Source of the DNA: a virus
IMG/VR virus record: IMGVR_UViG_3300027878_000003
Location: 2,992-66,991 of that record
DNA length: 64,000 nucleotides
Direction: 5' to 3' (one strand)
Each line of letters opens with the position of its first letter. The first letter of the stretch is position 1. The translations under genes and the position numbers were made by a program. The notes under the pieces are model-generated. The model saw only the letters and a list, made by a program, of their open reading frames with translations, had not been told where the DNA came from and did not search any database. Positions 4,872 to 54,085 of this stretch are shown in pieces.

Positions 4872-6802
4872 TACTGATCTCCTTCAGGATTCTTCTTCTT
4901 ACGAGCCTTTTTAGGTTTGACTTCTGGCTCTGCCCAAGGATCGTCGTCGTCTGTAGCTGGGTCGGGGTTTTTCGGTTCCGCCGCTTTGCGAGCTTTTCTA
5001 GGTGGAGCGGTGTATAGCCCAGTTGGCTCCGGCTTAGGTTTTGAGGCTCTTGGAGTGGTTGCTTTTGGTTTAGCCTTTGAGGCTGTCAATCTAGGCTCAT
5101 AATTCTCTTCCTCTTCCTCTGGCTCCACGACAGGCTTAGCCCTAGATCGAGTTGCTTTGGGCTTTGGCTCCGCTGCGGATTCCTGTTTCTTGGTTTTGCG
5201 CCCCAACAGACTGGAGTCGTAATACCCAAACGATTCCCGAATATGCCGCCGTGCTTCAGGGTCACTGAGATAATCCTCAACCTCTCCCCCCTTGACCGTA
5301 GAAATCCACTTGGGGCGATACTTAGGAAGAATTGAGAAGGGATCTTTGGAAGACGTAATGGTTGAGATATTCTGATTCATTCTCTTAGTCGTCCGAGTCT
5401 TACCCTTCTCGTCCACTCCGGGCTTTGTGATGCCAAAATCGGGGGTGCCCATCATGACGACGTTAATGCGAGAAGAAATATCGCTGCCTTTAATGCCGCT
5501 TCCATCTGGAGGTCGCATCCGCTCCAGAATTTCCAGGGCTTCATTCGTCACGTTGCCGCCCGCTCCGTGAGCCAGGATGTTGAGAGGTTTGTCCTTATAG
5601 GCAGAGCCATGAGCATATAGCTGAGCCGCCAAATCAACAGCAGCCTGGTTTCTACCTTTTTTGGTATTACTTAAATACTTTCCGAACTGACCTTTAACAT
5701 GATCAAGTAGGTATCTTGGGTTGTAATTCCCGGCTGCATCCCGCTTCTGATGTGGCGATAGCGGTACATCAAAATCAGCACTCTTCAAGGGAATAACGTG
5801 ATTATGTTGTGTCAGCCAATCTTCTTCACTATCGTCTTCTAGCGGGGCTAAGTGGCTTTTAATATCTGCCCATTTAGCGACTGGAGCTTGAGAGAATCCA
5901 TCCACCGTGAACATGATGTTATCTTTTTCAACCTCTTCAACAGGAAGTCTTCTCGCCTGCTGAACTGCCATCCGAGCTGACTCTTGAAAGCCATCTCGAT
6001 ACCTGTCTTGACCTTTCCTGTATTCGGAAACTCCCTGGTTGATCAAGAATGCTCCAACGGTTAAAGCCGCGATTTGCGGAGTTGCACCGCCCAGCATTCG
6101 GGTGATCTTCTGGAGCTGCCCCCAGGTCGTCAGTGGGTTGCCAGGGATTGTGGCACTGGCGCTGCCTAGATAAGCATCCCGCTCTCGTCTGGCGCTTTGC
6201 TGTTTGTCCAGCGTCTTTCTCAAGCGATTCTGACTTTCAGGATCTTTCTCTACAGCCTGCAAGGTACTCACCAACTCAGCCTTGCTCATGTGATTGGCGC
6301 GATAGACACCCCGCTGCCGAGCCTCCTCCTGCAACTGTCGAATTGTCTTTTGGTCACGAGATTGTGCAGCTCCTTTAATCGCAGCCATTTGACCGGGGGT
6401 GGCAAATTCATCGCCTTCTAGCTCACAGGTATCGCCTGGTTCAATGCACGCATCGCCACAGCTCACACCCTTGACGCACTTATCAGCCTTGTCAGTCCTC
6501 GTTTCAGATGGGGCTAACGGCAGAATAGCGATTCGCGCCGACAGCTCCTCATCTAGATCCCCCAGCATTTTTTTAGCAATCTCAGGAGTAACGAGCTTGT
6601 AAGAAAGCTTGTTCTTGTTCCAGTTCAGTTCAAAGACAAGGCAGTCAGACCTCTGAAGGAAGATGCCTTTCAAGCCACTTTCGCCCTGCGGATAGAACCG
6701 AACAATCCGCACACCACTCCCCGCCACCCCCTCTAGAACGCTGGTGAGCATTTTGCGGAGCCGAAGGTCGGAGCTGGCACTGACAGGAGCGGCAGTAGGC
6801 AT
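4871..6802 (-). CDS. Multidomain putative virion cargo: shared N-domain, RTD+Cys4 motif, Rho-N/HeH-like, hydrophobic helix, degenerate alpha/beta hydrolase, basic tail
   Basis: RTDKADKCVKGVSCGDACIEPGDTC; KTIRQLQEEAR..MSKAELVSTL; LNILAHGAGG..VVMMGTP..DPF. Confidence 0.75.
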   Translation of the reverse strand: MPTAAPVSASSDLRLRKMLTSVLEGVAGSGVRIVRFYPQGESGLKGIFLQRSDCLVFELNWNKNKLSYKLVTPEIAKKMLGDLDEELSARIAILPLAPSETRTDKADKCVKGVSCGDACIEPGDTCELEGDEFATPGQMAAIKGAAQSRDQKTIRQLQEEARQRGVYRANHMSKAELVSTLQAVEKDPESQNRLRKTLDKQQSARRERDAYLGSASATIPGNPLTTWGQLQKITRMLGGATPQIAALTVGAFLINQGVSEYRKGQDRYRDGFQESARMAVQQARRLPVEEVEKDNIMFTVDGFSQAPVAKWADIKSHLAPLEDDSEEDWLTQHNHVIPLKSADFDVPLSPHQKRDAAGNYNPRYLLDHVKGQFGKYLSNTKKGRNQAAVDLAAQLYAHGSAYKDKPLNILAHGAGGNVTNEALEILERMRPPDGSGIKGSDISSRINVVMMGTPDFGITKPGVDEKGKTRTTKRMNQNISTITSSKDPFSILPKYRPKWISTVKGGEVEDYLSDPEARRHIRESFGYYDSSLLGRKTKKQESAAEPKPKATRSRAKPVVEPEEEEENYEPRLTASKAKPKATTPRASKPKPEPTGLYTAPPRKARKAAEPKNPDPATDDDDPWAEPEVKPKKARKKKNPEGDQ

Positions 6803-6919: not shown

Positions 6920-7612
6920 AGCGCCAGCACCAAGGCTTGCCACCATAATCCCCGCATTCTCGTAAAACCCCCCCCGCTGCTCGATCGCATAACCACCCAG
7001 CAACAGCGCCAGCCATACCTTCACCAATGGCATCCCCAACTGCTGCTGCAACTCCAGCAGTGACAACGAATCATGTCCCAAAAACACTGCCCCGATCGCC
7101 CCCAACCACTGCGATACATCTTCATCGTGGGACACCCCGATCGCCAGATCAAACGCCTCCGCCTCACTCAGCTCAGGATGTTGCTCCAGGCGTTGATCTA
7201 ACTCTGCCAAAAGTGCAGCTTTGTCCAACAGACCCACTACCGTACCTGTTGGAGTAGCGCGAGGTTGGCGATCGCTCGGATATTGCACTGGCTCTGGATC
7301 TTCAAACAGATCGCCCAGATGTAGAGACTGCGATTGGACAAACAAATCGCTCTCTTCCTCCAGATTGACCAAAGGCTCTTGGGGATTATGCTGCTGCTCC
7401 CAGCCAGCCATCAGCAGTTCAGCTTTAGCCGCGTACACCTCCGAAATTTGCCGCAGCGATTCTCCGGCAATCTCCAACTGCGCCTGCACCGAGCGATCGC
7501 GGATCTCCCCCTCCAGCGCATCACACAGATGTTGCATGTCCGCCGTTTGAGGATATTGAATTGCCGCTTCTAGCGATTGAAACAAGTCCAGCTCTAGCTG
7601 TTGCAGCTCCAT
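6914..7612 (-). CDS. Hypothetical cyanobacterial plasmid-type protein with possible C-terminal wHTH
   Basis: Start MELQQ overlaps the upstream stop; C-terminal LSLLELQQQLGMPLVKVWLALLLGG. Confidence 0.7.
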   Translation of the reverse strand: MELQQLELDLFQSLEAAIQYPQTADMQHLCDALEGEIRDRSVQAQLEIAGESLRQISEVYAAKAELLMAGWEQQHNPQEPLVNLEEESDLFVQSQSLHLGDLFEDPEPVQYPSDRQPRATPTGTVVGLLDKAALLAELDQRLEQHPELSEAEAFDLAIGVSHDEDVSQWLGAIGAVFLGHDSLSLLELQQQLGMPLVKVWLALLLGGYAIEQRGGFYENAGIMVASLGAGAF

Positions 7613-8121
7613 CAATTCTCCCCTGGATGCAGAGGGCAAGGGCGAATGGGGCACAGGATCGGCTTCAGCTCAACAGCATCCCGAAAACGCTCAACCTTAA
7701 CGCCCGCGCTGTTAGAGAATCCATCCAGGATGCGAACCAACAGAGTCCTAATCTGCAACTCCGACAGTCCCAACGTATGGACAGGCTCAATCATTGCCTT
7801 GCGCTTGCCATCTAGCCACAGTTCCGCACTCAACGCATGGAGCGGTGAATCTTTCGTCTCACGATACCAATGAACCACAGCCGCAGAACCAGACGGCACC
7901 TCAACTTTCAGCAGCTCAACCCGACTCCCAGATCTTCCATTACCCCGACGCTTCAGCCGTCGCTTCTCGTTGAGAACACCACGACGACGGTAGTGCGAGC
8001 GGCGATCGTAGCACCGCGCTGGGTTCCAGCAGTTGTCCTTCTCTTTCCCGTGGGCTAATTGAGCATCGATGCTTGATAGCTTGGAGCAAAGGCGGCACTT
8101 CTCGTTGATCTGTTGTGGCAT
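7612..8121 (-). CDS. Cys-rich hypothetical protein
   Basis: CRLC..CW...CYDRRSHY and C-terminal CPIRPCPLH; likely start MPQQ at 8121. Confidence 0.7.
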   Translation of the reverse strand: MPQQINEKCRLCSKLSSIDAQLAHGKEKDNCWNPARCYDRRSHYRRRGVLNEKRRLKRRGNGRSGSRVELLKVEVPSGSAAVVHWYRETKDSPLHALSAELWLDGKRKAMIEPVHTLGLSELQIRTLLVRILDGFSNSAGVKVERFRDAVELKPILCPIRPCPLHPGEN

Positions 8122-8234
8122 GGGTTCCTGGCTTCCAGACGGCTTATTATACCTGATGTAGTCCGGGATTAGTCCTAGTAAAGATAATAGATATTTATTT
8201 GCACTACAGGGCAGTTTTCTGATAAGGTACAGAC

Positions 8235-8918
8235 GTGCCAAATGCCTTTTTTGGACACTCGATCGCAGATAGCTTTGATTTCTGTACACCAATCAATCGG
8301 GAGAATATGAGACAGAACGATTACATTCAGGTTGGGTCTGGGTTGACCATTGCCAAGACATCAGTTGCGGCAGTTGGACCTCCCGTGTATCACGGGCTTT
8401 ACGATAGGGCAGTGTATGTAGTCTATTTACATTCAGGGAAAGAGTTCGAGATATTCGAGACACCCGAGATATCCGAGACATCAGAGACTAGCCATTCGAC
8501 CCCAAACCCAATCCCCGCAATGCCTCGTGTGGATTTCCTTTTCCAGCTCTACGATGTCATCGTAGACAAGGAGCAAACCAGGATGCTCTGGAAGTATTTC
8601 CGGGCGGCAGACATGGAGTCCGAAACTGAGGCGATTCCAGTGGAAGATCAGGTGGCAGCGCAAGAAGTTGTAGGGAGCACGGACGCTAAGCAGCAATTTG
8701 AGAGAAGCCTCGTCGAAGCAGAAGATCACATCAATATTTATAAGGATGGCGACCAGTGGTGTGCCTTACATGGCGTAAATCTTCAGGAGGGGACGGCGGG
8801 CTTTGGCGACACACCTGGCAAAGCGTTGCAACCTGTGAGTGAGGCACTGACATCAGCCTTCTTGGAATTTCGAGCCGCAGCGGAGAGGTTAGGTAATTCA
8901 GCAGAGGAGAAGTCATGA
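8235..8918 (+). CDS. Hypothetical phage protein
   Basis: 227-aa ORF, ATGA overlap with next gene; true start may be later. Confidence 0.6.
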   Translation: MPNAFFGHSIADSFDFCTPINRENMRQNDYIQVGSGLTIAKTSVAAVGPPVYHGLYDRAVYVVYLHSGKEFEIFETPEISETSETSHSTPNPIPAMPRVDFLFQLYDVIVDKEQTRMLWKYFRAADMESETEAIPVEDQVAAQEVVGSTDAKQQFERSLVEAEDHINIYKDGDQWCALHGVNLQEGTAGFGDTPGKALQPVSEALTSAFLEFRAAAERLGNSAEEKS

Positions 8919-9271
8919 GATCATTATTTGCTGCTGGCTACACAGAGCACAAGGCTCCTGATAACGAGCTGTGGATGGAGCTAGATCTCCAGATCTTAAC
9001 CCCAGTTAAGCTCTACTCCATGAAGCGGACTGTGCGTATGCCACTCTTAGAGTGGAAGGCTTTAGATTTAACGGAAGAATGGCTGTCCAACTGGGGCGTA
9101 AGATACGACCCAGGGGCAGAGGCGATCGCAAAACGTTCCGCGGACTTTGACAGGGTTCGAGTAAACGAGGGTATGTCTGAAGCGGTACAAGTCGTTGAGG
9201 ACAGGAAGGTTTCTTGGGATTCTCTGACATCAATGGCTATTAGAGATATCGCCAGCGCAATCCGCAAATAA
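8915..9271 (+). CDS. Hypothetical protein
   Basis: 118-aa ORF coupled to the upstream gene. Confidence 0.6.
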   Translation: MRSLFAAGYTEHKAPDNELWMELDLQILTPVKLYSMKRTVRMPLLEWKALDLTEEWLSNWGVRYDPGAEAIAKRSADFDRVRVNEGMSEAVQVVEDRKVSWDSLTSMAIRDIASAIRK

Positions 9272-9286
9272 ATTCCCTTTTAACCT

Positions 9287-10294
9287 ATGTCCCATCCATC
9301 ACCCCTCCCCACTATCAAAGTCGTCGGGCTACCATCCCCCACGATCGCCCGTCGTCAACGTCCACAGCAGACCGTTGACCTGCGTTGGCTCAAGGTCGAG
9401 GAATTCCTAAACTCTAGTTCCTTGTCTGTCAACTCGCGCAAGGTCTACTTTCGGGAGCTGACAAGGTTTGCCGAATGGCTACCGCTGAACTGGAGTGAGA
9501 TCAAGAGTCGCCATATTGCCAGCTACAAGCTCTTCCTTAAAGAAGAAGTTCAGACTCGCTCTGGCACCCCTCTCTCTCAAAGCAGCATCAACTGCGCGAT
9601 CGCCTCCGTCAAATCATTCTTTTCCTGGCTGATGCAGTCCTACCCCGAACTGGTCACCCATGACCCATGCCTCGGCGTGCGGTTCGAGAAGATCCCCCTT
9701 CCTCCAGCTCAGAATCTAAACGCGCAACAGGTCGAACAAGTCTGGGGTGTTCTCCCCCAGCTCGGTGAAACTCAGTTGCGCGATACTGCGCTGATTCACA
9801 TTCTCTTTCACGGTCTACGGGCTGGAGAAGTCGTGTCGCTGAACCTAGCAGCTTTTGACCAGAACATCTTGTTCCTGGCAGACACCAAGAACAATGAGCC
9901 ACGGTTGGTGCCTCTACTCAAGGCGGCGGCGGCGGCAATTCAAGCCTACCTGAACAGCCGGGAAGAGTTGGGTGAAGAAATGACTGGCGATCGCCCTCTA
10001 CTCCTATCCCACCACCATGGGCATCGTAGCGAGCGGTTGACCTACTTTGGGCTGAGTTATGCGATCGGGAAGATTGGGGACTTGGCGGGAGTGCCCGACC
10101 TGCATCCGCACCAGTTCCGGCATACCTATGCCACAGAGCTGTTGCTGAAGGGAGTTGATCCGACTCATGCCAGAAGATTGACGGGACATAGGAGCGATCA
10201 GTCGTTCAGGCGGTACACCCTGGCTGGAGAACAGCAGGCTGCAATGGATGCCTTTTACCGTGCCTACGAACCAGAGCGAGTTCATAGCGACTAA
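9287..10294 (+). CDS. Tyrosine recombinase (XerC/D-like)
   Basis: GLRAGE, TKN, HPHQFRHTYAT, LTGH, RRY catalytic motifs. Confidence 0.95.
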   Translation: MSHPSPLPTIKVVGLPSPTIARRQRPQQTVDLRWLKVEEFLNSSSLSVNSRKVYFRELTRFAEWLPLNWSEIKSRHIASYKLFLKEEVQTRSGTPLSQSSINCAIASVKSFFSWLMQSYPELVTHDPCLGVRFEKIPLPPAQNLNAQQVEQVWGVLPQLGETQLRDTALIHILFHGLRAGEVVSLNLAAFDQNILFLADTKNNEPRLVPLLKAAAAAIQAYLNSREELGEEMTGDRPLLLSHHHGHRSERLTYFGLSYAIGKIGDLAGVPDLHPHQFRHTYATELLLKGVDPTHARRLTGHRSDQSFRRYTLAGEQQAAMDAFYRAYEPERVHSD

Positions 10295-10442: not shown

Positions 10443-11261
10443 ATGTCACAAAAACTATCCGAAATCCAAATCACGATCAAAGGGCAGACGTTTACCTGTC
10501 CCAGGCTATCAAACGAAAACTCCCTGTATTTTGGTTCGTTGCTCATGAACAGGGACGAGCTGCGGGTCTTTATCGAGGAAGAACAGCCTGAGCTTGCGAT
10601 GGATATGATGCAAGCGCGTTTGATTGAATCCAGCGAACAAATGTCCAAATTGTTCGCTCAGAAGGATCTTTCATCAGAAGCGATCGCAGAGCAAATCAAC
10701 AATGAACAAGTTCATGCGATCGTTCAGCGGTTTATCGTCCGCGTCAACCAAAACCAGGTGCCAGGGGATTACATTCCAAACGTTCGGTATCAAGTTGCAA
10801 AGAGACTTATAGAAGTCTTTCCCCAATTTGAATCAAATGGGTGGGTGACTGCCACATCCATCAACATGGACCTTGAAGACTTAATCACAGCACTCGCCAT
10901 TCCCCTCTTTGGCACCATGTCATCCGCAGCAGAGAAAGCAGCAGAGACTCAGCCAGAAGCCAAGAAGCCAAAGTCTGAAAAGCCGAAGGGCTTCAAAGCC
11001 GAAGTGCAGAAAGCTACCAAGGGGTCAGAAGCGCAAGGCAGTGACCCTAACGTCGGAGACAAAGAAGAGCGTTTTGACGAACTTCTGGCAAGCCGGAACG
11101 AACTGCAAGCGCGGTTCGATAGCCTGCAAGCCCAGCTTGCAGGCAGCGCAGCGATCGACGTTACCGTGGTCGAAGACGATGCCCGCAAGGGACGAATTCT
11201 CAACCTTGAGAAGGAGCTTGAGGCATTGAAAGCCTCAGCCGAAACGTCTAAGATTAGCTAG
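10443..11261 (+). CDS. Hypothetical protein with C-terminal coiled coil
   Basis: 272-aa ORF. Confidence 0.7.
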   Translation: MSQKLSEIQITIKGQTFTCPRLSNENSLYFGSLLMNRDELRVFIEEEQPELAMDMMQARLIESSEQMSKLFAQKDLSSEAIAEQINNEQVHAIVQRFIVRVNQNQVPGDYIPNVRYQVAKRLIEVFPQFESNGWVTATSINMDLEDLITALAIPLFGTMSSAAEKAAETQPEAKKPKSEKPKGFKAEVQKATKGSEAQGSDPNVGDKEERFDELLASRNELQARFDSLQAQLAGSAAIDVTVVEDDARKGRILNLEKELEALKASAETSKIS

Positions 11262-11485
11262 AGGTCAGAGATCTTCCGCTTGCGAGCGCGAGCACGGATA
11301 CGTCGCGGGACGGGGATGTTGCCCCCAGCTCCGGGTAGCGATCGGATAAGCTGCCGCATAACGTCCGTCATAGTTCGATTCGCATCCTTAGCAAAGCTTT
11401 TCAGCCTTTCCATCTCCTCTTCAGACACTCTGAAGTGCAGTTGTACCTCGGGTCCCATATTTGTGTACCAGTGTGGTAATATCAT
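11258..11485 (-). CDS. Ribbon-helix-helix (CopG-like) regulator
   Basis: LHFRVSEEEMERLKSFAKDANRTMTDVMRQLI; next to the origin. Confidence 0.75.
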   Translation of the reverse strand: MILPHWYTNMGPEVQLHFRVSEEEMERLKSFAKDANRTMTDVMRQLIRSLPGAGGNIPVPRRIRARARKRKISDL

Positions 11486-11646
11486 ATTAATCTAAAAAGA
11501 TCGAATAAATCGTTCTAGATAGAATATGCTGGTTTTCTGCCCTTAAATCCTTAGCTCTGAATCCTGATCTCAGGAGAGGAGTCCCCCAAAAATTGCCGTG
11601 ACTTTAAATCCCCACATCCGCACATTTACAAGCCTGCCTCCACGTA

Positions 11647-11680
11647 AAAAAGAGGCTCCGCATTTGCGTGAGCCTCTTTT
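11647..11680. terminator. Bidirectional intrinsic terminator-like hairpin
   Basis: aaaagaggctc..gagcctctttt. Confidence 0.55.
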
Positions 11681-11835
11681 ATAAGGTATTTTGCGATCCC
11701 CCCCACTCAACTGCCAAGAAGACAAAGGGGAAAGCGATTTAAGGCACTCACTATAACTCTCACGTTTCAAGGCTCTAGAAAAGCCTGATAGATGCTTAGG
11801 GCTGATGAACCCCTCAACGGATCACAACTAAATGT

Positions 11836-12202
11836 TTCAAAAAAACAAACCTAATCGGTCACTGACATGACCTTTCAGGGCTTCAAACTAAACAACTTAC
11901 TGGGTCAATTAAGACCCTTCAGAGATTCAAACTAAACAACTTACTGGGTCAATTAAGACCTTTCAGGGTTTCAAACTAAACAACTTACTGGGTCACTCAC
12001 ATGACTTTTCAGCTCATTCAAACTAAACAACTTACTGGGTCACTCACATGACTTTTCAGCTCATTCAAACTAAACAACTTACTGGGTCACTCACATGACT
12101 TTTCAGCTCATTCAAACTAAACAACTTACTGGGTCACTCACATGACTTTTCAGCTCATTCAAACTAAACAACTTACTGGGTCACTCACATGACTTTTCAG
12201 CT
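11836..12202 (+). repeat. Iteron array / probable replication origin
   Basis: Core TTCAAACTAAACAACTTACTGGGTCA at 11882, 11926, 11970, 12017, 12064, 12111, 12158 (periods 44, 44, then 47), plus a degenerate copy at ~11836; directly upstream of rep. Confidence 0.85.
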
Positions 12203-12433
12203 ATTACAGTCCATTCAGAATAGCACGATCGGATCAGTAAATTCACCGCTACAAAACAGGAATTTCCCTGGGGTAGCCGGAATCACTTACCTAGAAAAAA
12301 AGATTCCTGTAACAAACCAGGTGCGAACTGATTTGTTACAGCTCTTCAAATCTTTGTGCAATTCACCTTTAATTATCTCACAAATTAGCCCCTTCGTCAC
12401 CAGAAATCACCTTTTTCTGAGAGGAAGGAATTT

Positions 12434-14353
12434 ATGAGATTCAACTCAGTTGTGCAACGTGGGCTTTTTACCGAGATATTCCCCCATCGGTTTGACTATA
12501 TCTATGCTAATCATGTGCATCCAGGCGATCGCCCCGACTGGCAGACCGAATCGCGTCACCCCCTCAACGATCGCCTCATCGAACAAGGTGCTCTTCTATA
12601 CGGTGTCCGTTTCGGCGCACAGACTTCTTATGTCATGCTGGACATTGACGCTGGCAGTCCCTATCACCCCAGTCGCTGCAAAGAGGCAACAGCGAGGATG
12701 CTGGAATCGCTGGAACCGTTGGGGCTTGTCAGTTGTGTGACAATCAGCAGCTCTTTCAGTGGAGGATTGCACCTTTACTTCCCGTTCAGAGAGAAACAGA
12801 GTTCTTATGACATCGCGGTAGTGGTTGCCACTACCTTAGAGAACGCAGGCTTTCCTTTGAAGGGCGGGCAGGTAGAGCTTTTCCCAGACCCCAAACCCTA
12901 TACGGCTGAGGGCACCCGATCGCTATTCAACGCCCATCGGTTGCCGATGCAGGATGGATCGTTTCTCCTCGATGAGGATTTCCAGCCGACTAGCGCTTTC
13001 AAAGAAACATTCCAAGAGCGGTGGGAGTGGGCTAAGGACAGGAATACTGACGTGAAGCGATCGGTGCTCCGGCGCAGGCTAAAGCAGGTGAAGCGCTGGA
13101 GATATCACGTCTCTGGTAAGGCAGACAAATTTCTCAACGACCTCAACGCTGAGATCGAGCTGGGTTGGACTGGTCCAGGGGAAACAAATTATCTCCTCGG
13201 TCGCATCACTATGCGGTGCTTCATTTTCCACCATGTCTTAGCAGGTGGCTCACCTTTATCTGGGAAGCCTCTTGTAGATGCAATAGTGTCTATTGCTCGG
13301 GATCTACCTGGGTACAAAGAATTTTGCGGGCATCAGCACGACATTGAACATCGCGCCCAAGAGTGGGCACATTGCATTGAGGGCAGCAAGTATTTCCCCT
13401 ACGGCACTGCTAAAGGAAAATACAAACCTAAAGCCTCAGACTCAACTACTACGTCCGAAGCGTCCCCAACCTGGAATCAACAACAAACCAGTAAAGCCAG
13501 GGATCGAATTGCTAGGGCGATCGCGGTGATGCTCGATTCTGGTTCCTTGCCCAGTAGCCCCACCAGTCGATGCAAAAAGTTAGTAGCTGCCGGGATCGGT
13601 ATGGCAACCCTCTACCGACACCGGGATTTATGGCACCCCGCTCACTTTATTGAGCTGGAGCCAGATTCGTCCGAAAACCCCGTCAAATATGAGGTTGGAC
13701 AGTCAGACCGCGCTGAGGGCGCATCTGACTGTCACAGTCCTACAAGCTTATTTACAGCAACAGGCAGTAATCCTATGCCAGAACAGGCTTTCAGCGATCG
13801 TGACACCCCCCTAAGCCTGGTTTCAGGCAGTAATAGCCAGAACCCTTTACCAGATGAGTTTTCAGGCTTAAGTGCTCAGGATTGTGCTGCGGCGATGAGA
13901 GCTGCCTCTCAAGAGGCTCTGAGAATGGCTACTCAAATTAAAATTCAGTCGGTTGATCAGGCATATCTAGCCCGAATGCAGAGCTATCTGGACTCCAATG
14001 ACCCGATTCTGATGGCAGAGGCGATCGCTTGGCAGGCTGTTGCCCGAAATAGTAGTCCGGCTGAGCCTGAACCTATAGTTCCCAACGCCATCCTTGTCCC
14101 TCTACCGCCCACTCCTCCTCCTATGCCACCACCCATTACCCAGTTAGTCCAATTCGAGGTTGCCGAGACGGGCGATCTATCCCATCTCCTGATGTCAATT
14201 GACCTCCAGCAGCGATGGCTGGACTGGAGTAAGGAACGAATTGTAATGGAGATGACTTCGCAGTTCGGGAAGGCAAAGCGATCGCTGTTAACTCCCTCAG
14301 AACTGGGGCAATGGCTCGCCTATTTAATGCCGGGAGGTCAGTTCAATGCATGA
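12434..14353 (+). CDS. Plasmid replication initiator, AEP primase-polymerase-like
   Basis: YVMLDID and SGGLHLYF motifs, C-terminal HTH-like GIGMATLYRH; adjacent iterons. Confidence 0.8.
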   Translation: MRFNSVVQRGLFTEIFPHRFDYIYANHVHPGDRPDWQTESRHPLNDRLIEQGALLYGVRFGAQTSYVMLDIDAGSPYHPSRCKEATARMLESLEPLGLVSCVTISSSFSGGLHLYFPFREKQSSYDIAVVVATTLENAGFPLKGGQVELFPDPKPYTAEGTRSLFNAHRLPMQDGSFLLDEDFQPTSAFKETFQERWEWAKDRNTDVKRSVLRRRLKQVKRWRYHVSGKADKFLNDLNAEIELGWTGPGETNYLLGRITMRCFIFHHVLAGGSPLSGKPLVDAIVSIARDLPGYKEFCGHQHDIEHRAQEWAHCIEGSKYFPYGTAKGKYKPKASDSTTTSEASPTWNQQQTSKARDRIARAIAVMLDSGSLPSSPTSRCKKLVAAGIGMATLYRHRDLWHPAHFIELEPDSSENPVKYEVGQSDRAEGASDCHSPTSLFTATGSNPMPEQAFSDRDTPLSLVSGSNSQNPLPDEFSGLSAQDCAAAMRAASQEALRMATQIKIQSVDQAYLARMQSYLDSNDPILMAEAIAWQAVARNSSPAEPEPIVPNAILVPLPPTPPPMPPPITQLVQFEVAETGDLSHLLMSIDLQQRWLDWSKERIVMEMTSQFGKAKRSLLTPSELGQWLAYLMPGGQFNA

Positions 14354-15482
14354 GTTAAAGTCTGATTACAATGTCCACCCCATCCGTCCGCTCAGCAGTT
14401 TGGTTCTTTGTGGCTCTAGGGTTGACCCCTATAAGCCCGCTTCAATTGAACGGCTCAATGCTTCTTACCTCACAGAGCAAACTGCCAGAGTCGATCGGGG
14501 GCAGACATCTTCTCTCTATCCAGGGTTGAGCAATTTCAATAAGCCTAAGTTCAATGTGCCGCTGCGAGAAGCATTCTTCCTGCCCGTTGATGCTGCCAAA
14601 CAGGAACATGCCTGGGCACAACTCCAGGGGCTACATCAAGATTTGAGTGTCAGCCTGAACGCGATCGCCCTGAAGCTGCAAAGCATGGGGCGCTATGCCG
14701 AACGGCTAGAGCAGGCAGGTGACGATGCCCCCAATCCTCTGAACGCTGAAGTTGTCATTGCTGAAGATCCCCACGATATTCGGTGGGGAACTGAATGCTT
14801 GGGAGAATGGCATCCCTCAGCCATTAGCAAGGTGGCAGTTTTGCGCCATACACCCAGGAAGATAGAGCTGGCAACAGGTGGAATGAAACTTCAGTCGGGC
14901 AAGTTCTGCTGCCAGGGCAATGACTGGGAGGAATTGCAGCAGTTGCAAAGGCTGGCAGATGCCAGAGCCGATGCGATCGCCGCATTCTTCAAAGCTCCGA
15001 CCTCATGGAAGGAACCTGCACAGGAAATTGCCCTCACCGAGCAGCAAATTAAAACTGCTGCCCTGGCGCTGCCCGAAGATCGCCGTCAGCGTTTAGTCAT
15101 GGCGCTGCTGCAAAGTCTCCCACCAGACATTGATTCAATCGAATCTGCTGGCGTATGCGCCAGCAAGAACTTTACAGGATGGCTTGAGGAACAGCGAGAA
15201 GGGAAAGAAGCCTACTTCCGCTATCGCGTGGGTGGCTCGCGCAAGAGCAAGAAACTCAAGAGCAAGGCGGAGATCCTATTGGTGCAGAAGCTTAAGCATC
15301 ACCGTCACCCTTGGGAGAAAACGCTGGCAGCTCTGGGCAATTTTCTAGGCGATGCCCAGGCGACGGTAGACCGACTGCACGAGTCCGGGTTCCTAACAGC
15401 GATCGAGTCCGCAGAAATTATTTCCTTCCATGGAATGGAGAAGAAAAAAGTTGACATCCTCACCGTCCTGAAGGAGCGGTGA
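14346..15482 (+). CDS. Hypothetical protein coupled to rep
   Basis: 378-aa ORF overlapping the rep stop. Confidence 0.7.
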   Translation: MHELKSDYNVHPIRPLSSLVLCGSRVDPYKPASIERLNASYLTEQTARVDRGQTSSLYPGLSNFNKPKFNVPLREAFFLPVDAAKQEHAWAQLQGLHQDLSVSLNAIALKLQSMGRYAERLEQAGDDAPNPLNAEVVIAEDPHDIRWGTECLGEWHPSAISKVAVLRHTPRKIELATGGMKLQSGKFCCQGNDWEELQQLQRLADARADAIAAFFKAPTSWKEPAQEIALTEQQIKTAALALPEDRRQRLVMALLQSLPPDIDSIESAGVCASKNFTGWLEEQREGKEAYFRYRVGGSRKSKKLKSKAEILLVQKLKHHRHPWEKTLAALGNFLGDAQATVDRLHESGFLTAIESAEIISFHGMEKKKVDILTVLKER

Positions 15483-15865
15483 TTCCAAGAATCACTTCTT
15501 GGGTTTTCTGCTTCATAGCAACTGCCTCGACCCTCTAGGAGTTTTGGTCTTATGTTCGCTCCACAGACTAACCCCGCAAGCCCTGCGGTTTTTCAACAAA
15601 CAGTCAAAAACTGGTTTGATTTGTGTCTTTCAAGGATGTTGCCATTGCCTCTCAAGCTTTTCCCGGTCTACCAACTTTTCTGCGCCGCCGTCTGCGGGTG
15701 CAAACGAACTTTGGTGTTAGGCTCTATGTCTCCGTTGTCGCGGGTGGGTCAGCAACCACAACCATTATACCACATACGTTTGGAGGTTTTCGCGGCATTG
15801 AGCCGCTCAACCTCCGCTCCTATCCATCCCCGCCCTAGAACGGCAGGGTTTCTCGGAGAATCTCG

Positions 15866-16372
15866 ATGAAGCCGCAGTTATCCATGATCTGGACCAGTAA
15901 GCTGCCGATTACGTCGGATGGCAGTTCATACCTTGAGATTGTTCCAGTCACGGGCAATCAAGGAAACTTCATACTGAACTTAGGAGGCGATCGCAGAGAA
16001 GACGATCGCTATTTCCCCCGCTATTTCTGGGACAGAACAGACGCTCAGAGGGAGGCTGAGGCGTATCTGATTAGGCAGGCTATTGATGTGCGTGGCAAGT
16101 CTTTTGGTCAAAGCCCTCGCGCCATCATTCAGTTTGGAGAATCTTTAAACGAAATCGTCGGGGATTATTGCACTGCCACCATTCAGCCCATTCTGCTTTT
16201 TGGCGGGCAGCGCTGCGCTGTGGGCAACTATGCAGCAATAGTGCATGTCCATGAGGGGAAGGAAGATGTGTTCGTTGCTGACGATTTAGATTTACTCCCA
16301 CGCCTATATTTTGAGTTGGCGATCGCCATGACGGAAACCTGGAGCTGGATGAGAGCGAGAGAGCAGGTTTAG
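15866..16372 (+). CDS. Hypothetical protein
   Basis: 168-aa ORF with GGAG RBS. Confidence 0.6.
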   Translation: MKPQLSMIWTSKLPITSDGSSYLEIVPVTGNQGNFILNLGGDRREDDRYFPRYFWDRTDAQREAEAYLIRQAIDVRGKSFGQSPRAIIQFGESLNEIVGDYCTATIQPILLFGGQRCAVGNYAAIVHVHEGKEDVFVADDLDLLPRLYFELAIAMTETWSWMRAREQV

Positions 16373-16389
16373 CAATTAAGAGGTTAATT

Positions 16390-16758
16390 ATGTTGCCTGA
16401 AAAAATCAATGAATGGGTTTTACTAATCATGTCTAAACGGATTCGAGTCCCCGTCATCCAAGTTCCCAACTTCTTGATAACCGATGACTGCGACCCTGTA
16501 GACCTTGAAGAAGACCATCCAGCTAATCCCTTATCCCCTCACTACAGATTGGAGGCTAGGCTGTCTTGGCTGGAAGAGCAACATCCAGACCATCCCTTGA
16601 ACCGCCGCGAAAGACATACCGATCGCCCCGTAGTCTGTGATGGATGTCGCAATTATTATGGTCTGTCGCATGGCGGAAACAGATTAATATGCGGGATGCA
16701 TCCGTATGGTGTTGCTGGAGAAATTTGTAGTGATTGGGGATGCAAAGATGCAGAGTAG
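16390..16758 (+). CDS. Small Cys/His metal-binding protein
   Basis: CDGCRNYYG..LICGMHPYG..CSDW. Confidence 0.65.
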   Translation: MLPEKINEWVLLIMSKRIRVPVIQVPNFLITDDCDPVDLEEDHPANPLSPHYRLEARLSWLEEQHPDHPLNRRERHTDRPVVCDGCRNYYGLSHGGNRLICGMHPYGVAGEICSDWGCKDAE

Positions 16759-18436
16759 TTCCATCCAGACAACAGAGTTCCTGATTCCAGGGGGAGTTCC
16801 CTCTGAGTGGTTCGATACGCTAACAACGGTGTGGAATCAATCGTTGTTTTATCTGTTCTGGTTGCAGCATTGGAAGCGGGGAAATAAGGCTCAATCCTTC
16901 GAGCTTTCCCCAGAAATCTACGAAGCTGTTGAAAGTGAATTCTGGGGTATCCGTCTAGGCTACGACCTGATTCCCCCAGTCGAGGTCAAGATTCGCAAAC
17001 AAGGCGATGACTGGGTTCATTGCTGCGACATCGCCCGCACTGTGCGCCTGGACAGAACAAAATCCTGGGATTCGTCCAACACAGAGGAGCGGGCGTGCTG
17101 CCCGATTTACTGCCCTAGAAGTGTTGTTCCCGCCCACGCCCAACCCGTGGGACAAAAGCAATTCTGGATGGAGACTCCACCCATTTCTAATTACAGCGCG
17201 ATCGACCTACGTAAACCGTTCGCAGCAAAGCGTTGCGACTGGATTAAAGAAGCGACAATCCCCTCTGTGTACATCAATGACTTTATTAGTTTGGTCGTGA
17301 TGCCTGCCTGGGAGTCCTATCAAAAGGGCAAGCGAGGGAAGCCCAGATTCAAGGGCAAATCCAACCCAGTCACGACGATCGCCTGTGAATCATTCCGGGC
17401 ACAGTGCCACTCCAAAGGAGACGATCGCCTCAAACTGCCTGGAGCGATCGCCCATGTGCCAGGGTTAGAGCGGCGGTTACTGACCCCGATCGCTCGGTTG
17501 ATCAAGCAAATGAAAGCGAACCCCAGCCAGTTTCCGGCGCTGGAGAAGAAAGTAGAAAAGCTACGGACAGAGGCGCTTCGCAAAGTCGCCAAAGCAGAGA
17601 ATCTGGTCATTAAAGATTTGAGCGCAGAAGCGTTGGCAGCACTGAAGCAACGGATCAACGAAGACGAGATTAAAAATAAGGCGATCGAATATTTTGAGAA
17701 GCCTGGGAGCTTCAGAATTCTCCGCAGAGACGGTGCAGCGTATCTGCAAATCACAGCAGAAATGCCCGTCAAGGTTACCCCTACAAGCAAGATTGTCGTG
17801 GTGGACACGGGCATCAACTATCTTGTAGTCGGCTCTAATGGGATGGTTGTAAAGCACCCGAACTTTTCCAAAGAAGAAGTACGACTTAAAAGTCTGCAAA
17901 GAGTCCTGGCGGAGAAGAAGCCAGGTAGCCTCAACTTTGAAAGAAACAGAGCAAAACTTAAAAAAGTCGAGGGGCGGATCAGGCGCTCCAAGCGCAAGCG
18001 TCAAACCTACGTTGCGGCGTGGCTCGCAGACGTGAATAGAGAAATTAGAGTAAAGCTGCTCAAGATCCCAGAGGCGATCGCCACACCCAACCCTATCCCC
18101 GACAAAGAGGGCGAGAGATATATTCCCAACGGCGCTGGGGATGCTGCTATTGTCAATCGCCTTACTCTTGATGCGGCTCTGGGGCAATTCGTTAATTTGG
18201 TAGAGCAGCAGGCAGCTAAAAAGAACCGCACCTTTACCAAAATCGACATTGAGCCAGAAGCCAATGTTGAAGACATGGAGCAACAGATTCAGACCGCAGA
18301 GACTACGACTGAAAGTAACGGTCAAGCGATCGCCCGTGAACCAGACAGGAAGAAGAAACCAAAGTCTACTGGTACGCCAGGGACAACAGCCGTAGCTAAG
18401 AAGCGGAACCGTAAGAGAGAAGAGGCGATCGGTTAA
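16748..18436 (+). CDS. Enlarged, predicted nuclease-dead TnpB/Cas12f-like protein
   Basis: VWNQSL, GKPRFKG, RuvC-I VVVDTGI, LKSLQRVL..KKPGS.N, YIPNGA..NRLTLDAALGQF. RuvC-II Glu position reads K; zinc finger and RuvC-III absent. Confidence 0.75.
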   Translation: MQSSSIQTTEFLIPGGVPSEWFDTLTTVWNQSLFYLFWLQHWKRGNKAQSFELSPEIYEAVESEFWGIRLGYDLIPPVEVKIRKQGDDWVHCCDIARTVRLDRTKSWDSSNTEERACCPIYCPRSVVPAHAQPVGQKQFWMETPPISNYSAIDLRKPFAAKRCDWIKEATIPSVYINDFISLVVMPAWESYQKGKRGKPRFKGKSNPVTTIACESFRAQCHSKGDDRLKLPGAIAHVPGLERRLLTPIARLIKQMKANPSQFPALEKKVEKLRTEALRKVAKAENLVIKDLSAEALAALKQRINEDEIKNKAIEYFEKPGSFRILRRDGAAYLQITAEMPVKVTPTSKIVVVDTGINYLVVGSNGMVVKHPNFSKEEVRLKSLQRVLAEKKPGSLNFERNRAKLKKVEGRIRRSKRKRQTYVAAWLADVNREIRVKLLKIPEAIATPNPIPDKEGERYIPNGAGDAAIVNRLTLDAALGQFVNLVEQQAAKKNRTFTKIDIEPEANVEDMEQQIQTAETTTESNGQAIAREPDRKKKPKSTGTPGTTAVAKKRNRKREEAIG

Positions 18437-18855
18437 CCCACCAACACCATCATTCCACTTTCATCTAAGGTGAATGGCAAGTTGCAAGCCGCCGCTAGTT
18501 GCCGCAGGGTGCCTGTGGTTTCAGCATCGGGGTGGGCGATCGCCACCATTGCGTTCCACAAGTAAATAATGTTGGGCAAAACCGCTTCATTTGCGCCCAC
18601 TTGCCCCATGAGAACCACGAAAACACTACTGATGGCAGCGGTTTGGGAATTAAAGCCAATCACGGGTAAAGAGGCGATCGTTCCCACTGCCTGAAACGTT
18701 GCCCAATCACGAACAGGCGGTGGGGATGGGTTTAAATAATCCACCACCCTCGGATCATCGTCAGCCACCTCAAACCACAATTCAGCCTCAGCACTCGGAG
18801 GGGCGATCGAAGCGTAGCCGATGGTTTTGCCGTTTTCTTGCCTGATGTACACCAC
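18433..18855 (-). CDS. Tail-fiber-associated/chaperone-like protein
   Basis: EVADDDPRVVDYLNP; follows fiber-like genes. Confidence 0.55.
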   Translation of the reverse strand: MVYIRQENGKTIGYASIAPPSAEAELWFEVADDDPRVVDYLNPSPPPVRDWATFQAVGTIASLPVIGFNSQTAAISSVFVVLMGQVGANEAVLPNIIYLWNAMVAIAHPDAETTGTLRQLAAACNLPFTLDESGMMVLVG

Positions 18856-37815: not shown

Positions 37816-38616
37816 CTAAACGCACTTACGTCGTTGAGCTTGACCCTTGTAGATGACCTTGTAAGGTAGGCAGTCAGAGCCATCATCTTGAACCCGGAAG
37901 GACAGAGACATCTTGGCATCGGCTGTGTTGATTTCTCCCTCATCCAATTTCACCGAGACGCTGGGGAATTCCCATTGCAGCAAGGTGCGATCGGTCATGA
38001 TTGTCAGCATTGTCAAACTGAAGCTGCTGAAGTCTTCTTCTGTGAGGACGATCGCACTAGCCAGTTGATGTGGGAAGGAGTAAGCAACGTAGGTGTTGAT
38101 CAGGTTGGTTGACCACTTCTGCGCGTTGTTTGCGCCCTGAGCATAGGAGAAAGGAATAGCGGCATCAAAGGAGCCAAAGGGCTGACGAGTTAAGTTGCTG
38201 GTCAAGTCATTGGAAAGCAGTGCTGTTGCTAATGAGTTGGTTTGGTCAGCAGGCATTCCGAACCCTTCATAGCCTGCCTGAGCCGGGGCGTATTCGCCCT
38301 TAGTAATGAGTAGACCATTGCTGACGACCTTAGTGTCAACATTGGCTTCTGACTGAAACTCCAAACCTAACTGCATCCCAATCAATTGCAGGCTGGTCTG
38401 GTTCCAATCTAATTTCACTTCAGGCTTACGAGCTTGGGTATAGGTGTCTAAAACCACCATCTCGCCTAAGCGAGAGTTACCTTCAATGACGATGACTTCT
38501 TGCCCAGGAGAGAACACTCCGCCCGATGCCGTGGGTAACACCAATAGGCTACCGCTAGGGGATTTCAGAACTGCGTCTGTCATCCCTTTGATTGTCTTGT
38601 ATAACTGTTTTGCCAT
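37816..38616 (-). CDS. Major tail (tube)-like protein
   Basis: Beta-rich 266 aa ending WEFPSVSV..GEI..MSLSFRV. Confidence 0.55.
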   Translation of the reverse strand: MAKQLYKTIKGMTDAVLKSPSGSLLVLPTASGGVFSPGQEVIVIEGNSRLGEMVVLDTYTQARKPEVKLDWNQTSLQLIGMQLGLEFQSEANVDTKVVSNGLLITKGEYAPAQAGYEGFGMPADQTNSLATALLSNDLTSNLTRQPFGSFDAAIPFSYAQGANNAQKWSTNLINTYVAYSFPHQLASAIVLTEEDFSSFSLTMLTIMTDRTLLQWEFPSVSVKLDEGEINTADAKMSLSFRVQDDGSDCLPYKVIYKGQAQRRKCV

Positions 38617-52748: not shown

Positions 52749-54085
52749 TTGACACTCCCCGGCGTGAACGCACGGGGATTCTTTAATCTAAGACATGACT
52801 TGCTCATGCAGGATTGCTCCAACTTGAGTAGAGATCTCATCTCCTAAAGCGTTACTTGCATCTAGTGCAAAGGTTCCGATATGCCCTACCGTACCCAATC
52901 CCCGACTGAGGATGTTTCTAGCTGCGTTGTGATCTCTATCTAGCACACAGCCGCACTTACAGATATGCGTTCTGGTACTCAAAGACTTCTTCACAATCTC
53001 ACCACAGCTAGAGCATTCTTGGCTTGTGTATTGAGGATTCACAGCAATCGTGATCCGCCCAAACACCTTCCCAAAATATTCAATCCAGACTCGGAATTGA
53101 AACCAAGATGCATCGTTAATCGACTTAGCTAGACAATGATTCTTCACCATATTTTTGATTCTCAAATCTTCGTAGGCGACTACATCGTTAGATGTGATTA
53201 CGCACCGTGCAAGTTTGATTGCATGGTCTTTACGCTGCCTACTTATTTTGAGATGGCGCTTACCTAGAATCCGTCTGGCTTTTCGTCTGTTGATTGATCC
53301 TTTAACCTTGCGAGAAACGCGGCGCTGTGACCGTTTGAGAACGATTTCACCTTTACGGAGAAACTTAGGATTCTCAATCATCACACCATCAGAATCGGTG
53401 TAATACTCTTTCAAGCCCACATCCAACCCAACGGCATTTCCCGATGGCTCCAACACCTCTAAGCGATTCACATCAACGCAAAACTGAACGTAGACACCAT
53501 CTGCACGTCTAACCAGTCTGACCCGTTTGATTTGGTCAGGCTGATAGAAACCTAGATCGCGTGTTCCTTTCAGCTTTAATCGCCCAATGTTCTTTTTATC
53601 GGTGAACGTGATGGATTTACGATCATCTGCCAGCTTCCATCCCGTCGTTTTGTATTCGACAGAACGGCAGTCTTTTTGGAACTGCGGAAACCCTTTTTTA
53701 CCGGGGATACCTTTTTTGCAGTTCTCAAAAAACCGCGAAATAGCAGACCATGCTCTTTCGGCGCTAGATTGCCTAGCTTGGGAGTTGAGTTCATTAGCAA
53801 ACGGAAATTCTTTAGCCAGAACCGCGCAATATTTATTGAGGTCGTACTTGTTCACTTTTGGATTGTCGATCCAAAACCGAAGCGCTTTATTGCGAACGAA
53901 TTGAGCAGTACGAATTGATTCATCTACTGCGCTGAACTGGCTTGATTTCCCGTATGTTTTGAACTCTAGAACTAGCATTGCTTCAACTCGTTTTGATATT
54001 CTTATACTAACATACTCAGCACAAGAATGGTGAATACCAAGAGAAAGCCGTCCTTAAAGGACGGGGTTTTCAACCCAAATTTTCG
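52749..54085 (-). mobile_element. IS200/IS605-family (tnpB-only, IS1341-like) element
   Basis: Minus-strand left end TTAT|CGAAAATTTGGGTTGAAAACCCCGTCCTTTAAGGACGG; right end GAATCCCCGTGCGTTCACGCCGGGGAGTGTCAA. Confidence 0.85.
52788..53978 (-). CDS. tnpB: TnpB RNA-guided endonuclease, intact
   Basis: GLDVG, AYEDL, TSQECSSCG..CKCG..DRDHNAARNI. Confidence 0.95.
   Translation of the reverse strand: MLVLEFKTYGKSSQFSAVDESIRTAQFVRNKALRFWIDNPKVNKYDLNKYCAVLAKEFPFANELNSQARQSSAERAWSAISRFFENCKKGIPGKKGFPQFQKDCRSVEYKTTGWKLADDRKSITFTDKKNIGRLKLKGTRDLGFYQPDQIKRVRLVRRADGVYVQFCVDVNRLEVLEPSGNAVGLDVGLKEYYTDSDGVMIENPKFLRKGEIVLKRSQRRVSRKVKGSINRRKARRILGKRHLKISRQRKDHAIKLARCVITSNDVVAYEDLRIKNMVKNHCLAKSINDASWFQFRVWIEYFGKVFGRITIAVNPQYTSQECSSCGEIVKKSLSTRTHICKCGCVLDRDHNAARNILSRGLGTVGHIGTFALDASNALGDEISTQVGAILHEQVMS

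Follow-up and report, generated by a model that had tools for sequence, protein, structure and literature searches.

A phage-borne, nuclease-dead TnpB-like protein and its relatives beside CRISPR arrays with spacers that match host genes

What can a TnpB-like protein do for a phage when its nuclease site is dead? This question is raised by a gene at positions 16748 to 18436 (+ strand) of a 64,000-nucleotide (nt) stretch of viral DNA, referred to below as the window, which corresponds to bases 2992-66991 of the 66,991-nt IMG/VR virus record IMGVR_UViG_3300027878_000003. Dead TnpB and Cas12 proteins that act as RNA-guided regulators are known from few clades, namely TldR, Cas12m, Cas12c and dCas12f-sigma. 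A sequence-only reading of the window had taken the gene for an independent, TldR-like domestication of TnpB, with a guide supplied in trans or with no guide. The analysis described here retains the dead TnpB derivative and gives it another origin. The gene very probably belongs to a family of which several members lie beside CRISPR arrays, and spacers of these arrays match the genomes of their own hosts. The best explanation, held with slightly more than even confidence, is that this RuvC-dead, zinc-finger-less family consists of CRISPR RNA (crRNA)-guided DNA binders, by which mobile elements would exert natural CRISPR interference (CRISPRi) on host genes. The parts of the gene that carry the argument are listed below, together with a canonical TnpB of the same phage, which was used as an internal nuclease-type comparator.

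16748..18436, + strand: focal gene, encoding a nuclease-dead, TNB-less TnpB/Cas12-like protein of 562 amino acids (alternative upstream ATG at 16706)
17462..17701, + strand: codons 239-318, a four-helix insertion of 80 amino acids that is flanked by WED strands and peculiar to the dead family
17801..17803, + strand: D352, the RuvC-I Asp, kept in the motif VVVDTGIN
18053..18058, + strand: K436-L437, at the position of the RuvC-II Glu-Asp of nuclease-type relatives
18263..18433, + strand: codons 506-562, an acidic-then-basic low-complexity tail in place of the zinc finger and RuvC-III
52788..53978, - strand: canonical TnpB of 396 amino acids in the same phage (OrfB_IS605 82.3 bits, TNB 72 bits)

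First, the fold of the focal protein was established. Its start codon at 16748 is favoured over that at 16706 by the N-termini of the family, which gives the length of 562 amino acids. In Pfam, the protein falls just short of OrfB_IS605 (29.5 bits against a cut-off of 30.5, residues 338-440), and the same family scores 33.3 bits in a six-frame scan. PHROG 506, annotated as 'transposase', matches at 3.8e-23 over profile positions 134-316 of 403, the last 87 being unmatched. A structure predicted from 13 homologues, with a predicted local distance difference test score of 71.4, superimposes on ISDra2 TnpB (8exa) with Z 18.1 and a root-mean-square deviation (rmsd) of 3.2 Å over 308 residues (VIA-align). 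The aligned span runs from residue 4 to 514 of the model and from 2 to 365 of the 8exa chain, and it ends at about the start of the zinc-finger domain. Thus the protein has the TnpB-type WED-REC-RuvC fold, and the TnpB skeleton that had been read from the letters was borne out by structure prediction. Weaker matches, at Z 9-13, were obtained with Cas12f, dCas12f, Cas12p, TranC, Cas12m and Cas12k, among the matches listed.

The catalytic site is dead, as had also been proposed. Of the D-E-D triad of RuvC, only the first residue, D352, is kept. In a BLASTP alignment, AYEDL of the canonical phage TnpB falls on RVKLL of the focal protein, so that the Glu is replaced by K436 and the Asp by L437; the unusual RuvC-II motif IRVKLL noticed earlier is therefore real. 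The region of RuvC-III is missing altogether. Pfam finds no match to PF07282 (TNB, the zinc ribbon) in the protein, and not a single Cys, hence no CxxC, follows RuvC-II, which agrees with the claim that a basic tail has replaced both zinc finger and RuvC-III. This C-terminus is rich in Lys and Arg, is modelled with low confidence and ends in RNRKREEAIG (18404-18433). The helical insertion had been put at about 90 amino acids: its four helices are present, and its length is slightly less, 80. Residues 239-318 correspond to 11-15 residues in eight of nine nuclease-type relatives and to 65 in the ninth, P0143. The insertion would sit where larger Cas12 proteins have their PAM-interacting insertion, PAM being the protospacer-adjacent motif. 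Signs of residence in an insertion sequence (IS), namely TnpA, conserved ends and several copies, are absent, and the sequence-only reading had likewise seen no IS ends. The gene is single in the phage, one family copy is present in each of three host genomes of relatives, and flanks are not shared between loci. A decaying, IS-borne TnpB pseudogene was considered and rejected in view of the intact open reading frame (ORF) together with the ratios of nonsynonymous to synonymous divergence (dN/dS) of 0.11-0.15 in the family.

The same features characterize the relatives. A word-indexed search gave 13 proteins, including that of the window, at 37-82% identity and 93-100% coverage, and 41 representatives were obtained by an exhaustive profile search at E<=1e-30. 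When 31 full-length family members are aligned with nine nuclease-type relatives, the RuvC-I Asp is found in 12/31 against 9/9, the RuvC-II Glu in 6/31 against 9/9, and a CxxC after RuvC-II in none of the 31 against all nine. Likewise, none of 20 family representatives has Pfam TNB, against 27 of 30 matches at greater distance. Most members retain a C-terminal peptide of the type RNRKRExAIG, also where the overall identity has fallen to 30%. dN/dS is 0.15 between the loci designated L001 and L002 and 0.11 between L003 and the copy on pREB1, a plasmid of Acaryochloris marina. Purifying selection in homologues, which the sequence-only reading had put forward as a check, is thus evident, and the full-length homologues are not the intact IS-borne TnpBs, with a decaying copy in the phage, that would have spoken against it. 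At source these proteins are annotated as 'hypothetical protein' or 'transposase'. The family is small and belongs to plasmids, prophages and phages of cyanobacteria, strains of A. marina among them. Its members are carried by pREB1, by a locus adjacent to ParA-ParB genes (L003), by a protelomerase element (L001) and by phage (L008 and the window). A scan of IMG/VR with the family alignment yielded 79 pattern stretches and no relatives, and 401 sampled cyanobacterial genomes, G001 among them, yielded besides G001 one match at 1e-25, which is a nuclease-type relative.

Second, the family is associated with CRISPR arrays. Four homologue loci were obtained from genome and metagenome collections (L001, L002, L003 and L008), the pREB1 copy being the fifth relative. 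In all four, an array begins 55-155 nt past the stop codon of the family gene, so that an array-adjacent effector is seen in four of six family loci, the window copy and pREB1 being without one. The L001 array has 11-12 repeats, each 29 nt long and spaced at a period of 62-63, and that of L002 has six repeats of the same repeat family. L003 has two repeats of 36-38 nt, 70 nt apart, and its contig ends 290 nt later; L008 has five, each 36 nt long, and their period is 71. The repeats of L001 and L008 can form hairpins with energies of -12.1 and -10 kcal/mol; in each case 9/200 shuffles do equally well. No cas genes were found in a Pfam scan of the neighbours at the four loci. The repeats of L001, L002 and L003 occur nowhere else in their three host genomes; therefore, these arrays belong with the family gene. 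That the focal protein is a dead member of an array-linked family can be stated with high confidence.

The position of the focal gene within the family bears on its origin. In a quick maximum-likelihood tree with midpoint root and supports from the Shimodaira-Hasegawa-like approximate likelihood-ratio test (SH-aLRT), the 31 family rows form a clade with support 100. The array-bearing loci are distributed over three separate subclades on either side of the focal protein, which lies, with its homologue P0003, inside an 18-row subclade that also contains L008. The type V-U2 effector of cyanophage CL131 belongs to the nuclease-type sister group. Because the focal gene nests in an array-bearing clade and a V-U2 effector is among the nearest nuclease-type relatives, the lineage was by parsimony array-associated before the phage copy arose, and the phage copy would then have lost or displaced its array. 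A phage-specific, independent domestication of an IS-borne TnpB, giving a TldR-like repressor that was never linked to an array and whose guide is encoded elsewhere or does not exist, would account for some of the facts: the focal locus has neither an array nor room for a 3′ guide, its protein is dead yet intact, and TldR offers a precedent for phage-borne dead TnpBs, at least in the available part of one report (bioRxiv 10.64898/2026.09.22.753285). However, this does not explain why the gene nests in a clade with 100% SH-aLRT support in which three sampled subclades carry arrays, why the insertion, the tail motif and the loss of the zinc finger are common to the focal protein and the array-bearing members, or why the nearest nuclease-type group holds an array-associated V-U2 effector. 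Nor does a conserved non-coding element stand beside the gene, as the sequence-only reading had led one to look for; the sole intergenic block nearby is an inserted repeat element, and what the relatives carry downstream is a CRISPR array. Independent domestication is accordingly judged decidedly unlikely, and this part of the earlier proposal is not supported.

Third, the spacers point to the hosts. In all three host genomes, spacers match the genome in which the array itself resides, ten spacers in total at 88-100% identity. In L001, 6/11 spacers match four other contigs of the own genome (44-159 kb) over 33-37 nt at 94-100% (E 4e-11 to 7e-8). In L002, three of five inter-repeat spacers match with 2-4 mismatches; a 50-nt stretch past the last repeat also matches the own genome, at 88%, and is probably no spacer and was left uncounted. 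The sole inter-repeat spacer of L003 matches with one mismatch. When read in the direction of the gene, AAG stands directly 5′ of all six L001 protospacers and of two of the three in L002, the third having AAC. Hence, a 5′-AAG is present at 8/9 protospacers of the L001/L002 clade, a PAM that is read in relatives of the focal protein. In searches against other sources, the L001 and L008 arrays had no match in a phage collection, and neither the L001 nor the L003 array had one in a plasmid collection, which in the case of L003 means that no relocated array was found on the A. marina plasmids examined. All spacers compared with the window phage and with the other loci gave chance 11-17-mers only.

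The targets are diverse. L001 spacers lie in ORFs for a PAS/GAF histidine kinase, a receiver-GAF-GGDEF-EAL protein, a ketosynthase-acyltransferase (KS-AT) protein and one unknown protein. Another L001 target is intergenic between two polyketide-synthase genes, with the KS-AT target 21 kb away on the same contig, and a further one is 28 nt upstream of a phycobilisome rod-linker gene. Spacers 1 and 5 of L002 share a target locus: their sites, about 430 nt apart, fall in a small ORF and some 100 nt upstream of this ORF. The L003 spacer matches exbB. The crRNA would be antisense to the gene in 7/8 cases within a gene or operon.

From these observations, the following course can be proposed. The array downstream of the family gene would be transcribed in the direction of the gene, and a crRNA composed of the 3′ part of the repeat followed by a 32-35-nt spacer would load the family protein. 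The loaded protein would recognize a 5′ PAM, AAG in the L001/L002 clade, and form an R-loop. Since the protein does not cut, it would remain bound as a roadblock for RNA polymerase. With host-matching spacers, an element could in this way silence chosen host genes, several at once. That the family acts as a guided repressor of host genes is, on this evidence, fairly probable, and a role like that of TldR, as first proposed, is still the best reading of the dead protein. For the phage copy the same activity is somewhat doubtful: it would have to draw crRNAs from the unassembled part of the genome (about 9%), from the array of a co-resident element or from the host, or else its guides may have been lost recently. 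The widest formulation, an undescribed dead type V-like system whose arrays are programmed against host chromosomal genes as multiplexed CRISPRi for host take-over, with array-less effectors loaded in trans from a guide pool shared between mobile elements, is put forward tentatively, as a rather unlikely whole.

Several observations weigh against guided repression of host genes, the first of them at the level of the family. The main caveat is that self-matching spacers could be free of cost once the effector is dead, and could then accumulate neutrally; that single loci are hit twice and that one strand sense prevails speaks mildly against neutral spacers. The L003 protospacer has ATG as 5′ flank, and its strand sense is the opposite one. 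The hosts of L001-L003 are metagenome-assembled genomes, so that the link between element and target contig depends on binning. Array-bearing loci number four, and two of the six loci seen are orphans, of which the pREB1 copy is followed directly after its stop codon by IS-like DNA and by no array. A trans-activating crRNA (tracrRNA) or anti-repeat was looked for as well: duplex energies were no better than those of shuffled repeats in three of four loci, the longest exact repeat complement was at chance level in L001-L003, and L008 has a 9-nt complement that is reached by 15/300 shuffles, so that no tracrRNA is demonstrated. Synonymous divergence is lower over the last 110 codons of the family gene (0.58 down to 0.31, and 1.92 down to 0.48), which could reflect an RNA element within the 3′ end of the ORF and is only a hint.

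Further points on this side come from the window copy itself. In the 66,991-nt record, no CRISPR array was found by a window-wide repeat scan or a k-mer array detector, a degenerate pattern of the L003/L008 repeat with up to three mismatches gave no matches, and nhmmer with both repeat families reached E 0.075 at best. Because the phage record contains neither an array nor a repeat-like unit, the focal gene is an orphan effector. A leader-like motif, GTGCTTGCA, occurs 8 times in the phage where 20 occurrences are expected. A scan for complements with blastn-short failed to recover arrays even in control loci. By blastn-short, one 16-nt exact inverted match exists between 18255-18270 and 38336-38351 (E 0.004); it has no AAG flank and is taken as chance. 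The place of the array in relatives is taken in the window by another gene:

18433..18855, - strand: convergent ORF of 140 amino acids, the last of a tail-fibre-like block, with no Pfam or PHROG match

The focal TAA (18434-18436, + strand) and the stop codon of this ORF overlap in GGTTAACC. This overlap had been read as one with a convergent tail gene: the overlap is real and, with no array present, leaves no adjacent guide locus, just as stated; the ORF itself matches no family, and its label as a tail gene has as sole basis a 1-nt start/stop overlap with the upstream tail-fibre-like genes.

Metagenomic reads suggest how this arrangement arose. A contig of the metagenome run X2 with a 98-99% identical gene matches the window over 18093-18432 and then continues with 167 nt unlike it, and a unitig of run X3 starts at 18436, that is, with a break at the focal stop codon. 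Together these point to a recent recombination joint at 18432-18436, where relatives carry the array. The window copy may be served by crRNAs from the unassembled part, from a co-resident element or from the host, or it may be newly guide-less. Taken to its end, the last possibility makes the gene a recently orphaned passenger, which recombination at the stop codon joined to the tail-fibre block while removing the array, and which, guide-less and functionless, will decay. The different 3′ flank of the X2 copy and the unitig breaks in X3 fit such a history, as does the pREB1 copy, which likewise lost its downstream region to IS-like DNA. However, all 562 codons of the ORF are intact, P0003 is a full-length homologue at 82% identity, and the pREB1 orphan still shows a dN/dS of 0.11 against the array-bearing L003, from which it follows that orphan copies stay constrained. 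Passenger status is for these reasons considered unlikely.

Guide supply in trans also admits a role aimed at another CRISPR system. The phage effector could capture crRNAs of a related plasmid or prophage system, and either blunt that system in the manner of an anti-CRISPR or reuse its guides. The family is present on several kinds of cyanobacterial element (plasmid, protelomerase element and phage), which makes co-residence plausible, and for a Cas9 variant that is carried by a phage and partly inactivated, action as an anti-CRISPR has been proposed, according to the available part of the source (PMC12669027). But repeats differ strongly between subclades, so that cross-loading would need a close relative, and a decoy or hijacker is considered quite improbable.

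If the family is indeed one of guided repressors, how does it compare with known systems? TldR proteins are likewise TnpB-derived and nuclease-dead, and some are phage-borne. In the accounts available, they are guided by RNA to host genes, recognize a 5′ motif and repress by steric block (bioRxiv 10.1101/2023.11.30.569447; 10.64898/2026.09.22.753285), and they form fliC-, csrA- and oppF-associated clades. Each uses one guide RNA encoded beside the gene, with a short guide, of 9 nt in the oppF clade (bioRxiv 10.64898/2026.09.22.753285). The focal protein shares with them the state of a nuclease-dead TnpB derivative under selection, whereas the single adjacent short-guide RNA is not found: relatives have repeat-spacer arrays with 32-35-nt spacers and several targets, and the window copy has no adjacent non-coding room. 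Hosts of the family are cyanobacteria, a group without mention in the available text of the recent TldR report (bioRxiv 10.64898/2026.09.22.753285). The family is set apart from TldR by this guide architecture. No TldR chain is among the structure matches listed, and a relationship may still exist.

Cas12m (V-M) and Cas12c (V-C) are described, in the parts of the sources at hand, as array-associated systems without adaptation genes that are often found on plasmids or prophages and silence by binding (PMC11013384, PMC11656645, PMC12669027). By analogy, the array-linked family without adaptation genes may silence in the same non-cutting way. Cas12m2 (8hhm) reaches Z 10.2 with the focal model against 18.1 for TnpB, and the whole zinc-finger/RuvC-III region is lost in the focal family, unlike in Cas12m and Cas12c. 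V-M spacers are characterized, as far as those descriptions extend, as aimed at plasmids and phages, whereas the matched spacers of the family hit host chromosomal genes.

Type V-U2 offers a similar comparison. Cyanophage vB_AphaS-CL131 carries a TnpB-like gene, gp061, with a downstream array of ten spacers and no other cas genes, and its authors suggested a regulatory role, according to the text available (PMC6293099). In our analysis, gp061 has 466 amino acids, retains TNB (58.2 bits) and is followed by an array of 11 repeats. It is only 26% identical to the focal protein, over residues 320-499, and lacks the 80-amino-acid insertion, like eight of the nine nuclease-type relatives aligned. 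Cas12k, the effector of V-K CRISPR-associated transposons (CAST), is also cyanobacterial, RuvC-inactive and array-associated. In L008, moreover, the five-repeat array is followed at 5336-5430 by three or four units, each consisting of the final 9 nt of the repeat and 21-25 nt, and truncated repeat-spacer units have been described for V-K in the accessible part of one report (bioRxiv 10.1101/2021.02.06.429022). However, no TnsB, TnsC or TniQ gene is present in any family locus, the focal model reaches only Z 9.8 with an rmsd of 4.7-4.8 Å, and no Cas12k chain appears in a PDB profile search. ISDra2 TnpB itself matches the structure best, over the entire WED-REC-RuvC core and in keeping with the OrfB_IS605 match, and differs in having the triad, the zinc finger, IS ends and TnpA, none of which accompanies the focal gene; the latter is single copy and carries the insertion and the basic tail. 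By sequence and structure, the family appears to differ from V-U2, V-M and V-K. About 50 independent transitions from TnpB to Cas12, with several inactivated V-U variants, are counted in the available portions of two sources (PMC10691335; PMC12669027). In the full-text literature, as far as available, neither the family nor any cyanobacterial arrays of dead Cas12 directed at host genes were found to be described, the member lists of V-U6-45, V-O and V-P standing outside the comparison, and the family may already be catalogued, without description, in V-U6-45 or a similar list.

If guided repression by this family holds, it would amount to direct evidence from genomes that CRISPR arrays serve mobile elements for rewiring the physiology of their hosts and not for fighting other elements. 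The family would add to the dead systems a cyanobacterial and mobile-element-borne one, with true multi-spacer arrays and host-gene spacers beside a clear PAM. Its effector is compact (about 500-560 amino acids), with a 5′-AAG PAM and native targets that include a photosynthetic antenna linker gene. Under host take-over, the genes affected would be those for the phycobilisome linker, for cyclic di-GMP and two-component signalling, for polyketide clusters and for ExbB. The phage copy indicates that such effectors circulate without arrays, which raises the matter of guide supply in trans. Conversely, if the self-matching spacers are neutral by-products of a dead system, what is left is a further inactivated V-U-like variant.

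The genomic setting of the focal gene is that of a tailed phage. The record has a CheckV completeness of 91%, and terminal repeats were not found in its 66,991 nt. PHROG matches include tape measure, major head protein, protease, portal, and large and small terminase, as well as two tyrosine recombinases and one methyltransferase. The focal gene ends a + strand block that begins with iterons and a PrimPol-like ORF and meets the - strand tail-fibre-like genes head-on. The other features of this block are as follows.

11869..14353, + strand: replication module at the head of the block, iterons and then the PrimPol-like ORF
11869-12251: eight iterons of 44-47 nt each (repeat scan)
12434-14353, + strand: ORF of 639 amino acids with a weak PrimPol match (Pfam)
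15866..16758, + strand: two co-oriented ORFs of 168 and 122 amino acids, upstream of the focal gene, with no family match

Neither of the two small upstream ORFs is kept beside any homologue of the focal gene. At the other loci, the neighbours are genes for a ResT/TelK protelomerase, PIN and SNF2 proteins (L001), a sigma factor (L002), ParA-ParB (L003), and phage tail lysozyme/M23 proteins (L008). Such neighbours bring up the idea that guided binding serves an end other than repression, either tethering of an episome to the chromosome for segregation or a CAST-like integration or recombination. Indeed, genes for replication, partition or telomere resolution adjoin the family genes, namely a Rep-iteron block (window), ParA-ParB (L003) and ResT/TelK (L001); dead TnpBs with tyrosine recombinases are reported in the available part of one source (PMC10691335); and the extreme C-terminal peptide is conserved. 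Against this, no neighbour gene is common to the window and any homologue locus and no partner gene is conserved across loci, Tn7-like genes are absent, and the targets lie mostly within genes or antisense to them and share no attachment-like site. Tethering or integration is therefore regarded as very improbable.

Some minor observations were made along the way. The region 11258-12251, with its iterons upstream of the PrimPol-like gene, forms a plasmid-like replication control region, and contains on the - strand a ribbon-helix-helix ORF of 75 amino acids (RHH_1 21.7 bits; NikA-like 23.6 bits, below its cut-off). The window phage may replicate as a phage-plasmid. In L001, the ResT/TelK-type protelomerase gene (7533-9587, - strand, 153.9 bits) is divergent from the family gene on a contig of a Thermosynechococcaceae metagenome-assembled genome, which suggests that the element is a linear plasmid or a prophage with hairpin telomeres in a cyanobacterium.

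The intergenic region 15483-15865 was tried as a candidate non-coding RNA and rejected, with a fold z-score of -0.39. It proved to belong to an inserted, widespread repeat element rather than to a guide locus. This 415-nt block (15450-15864) has a read depth of 300-3660 against about 5 in its flanks in all four metagenome runs, and one metagenome contig joins 15449 straight to 15865, skipping it. Of 301 cyanobacterial genomes sampled, 39 contain it, at a length of about 320 nt or as roughly its first 140 nt; the phage has one copy. The copies are intergenic, with no TnpB-like ORF within 1.5 kb at the six loci inspected. The block matches no Rfam family, and an Rfam scan of the whole window at gathering thresholds gave no matches.

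Among the nuclease-type relatives, the locus L017 (in G207) has an array about 800 nt away, whose repeat is presumably class-1-like, as judged from its repeat features. Finally, the C-termini of five nuclease-type relatives (P0043, P0047, P0050, P0063 and P0143) read QLxLW or are QLDLF-like, which we take to resemble the motifs that bind the beta sliding clamp.

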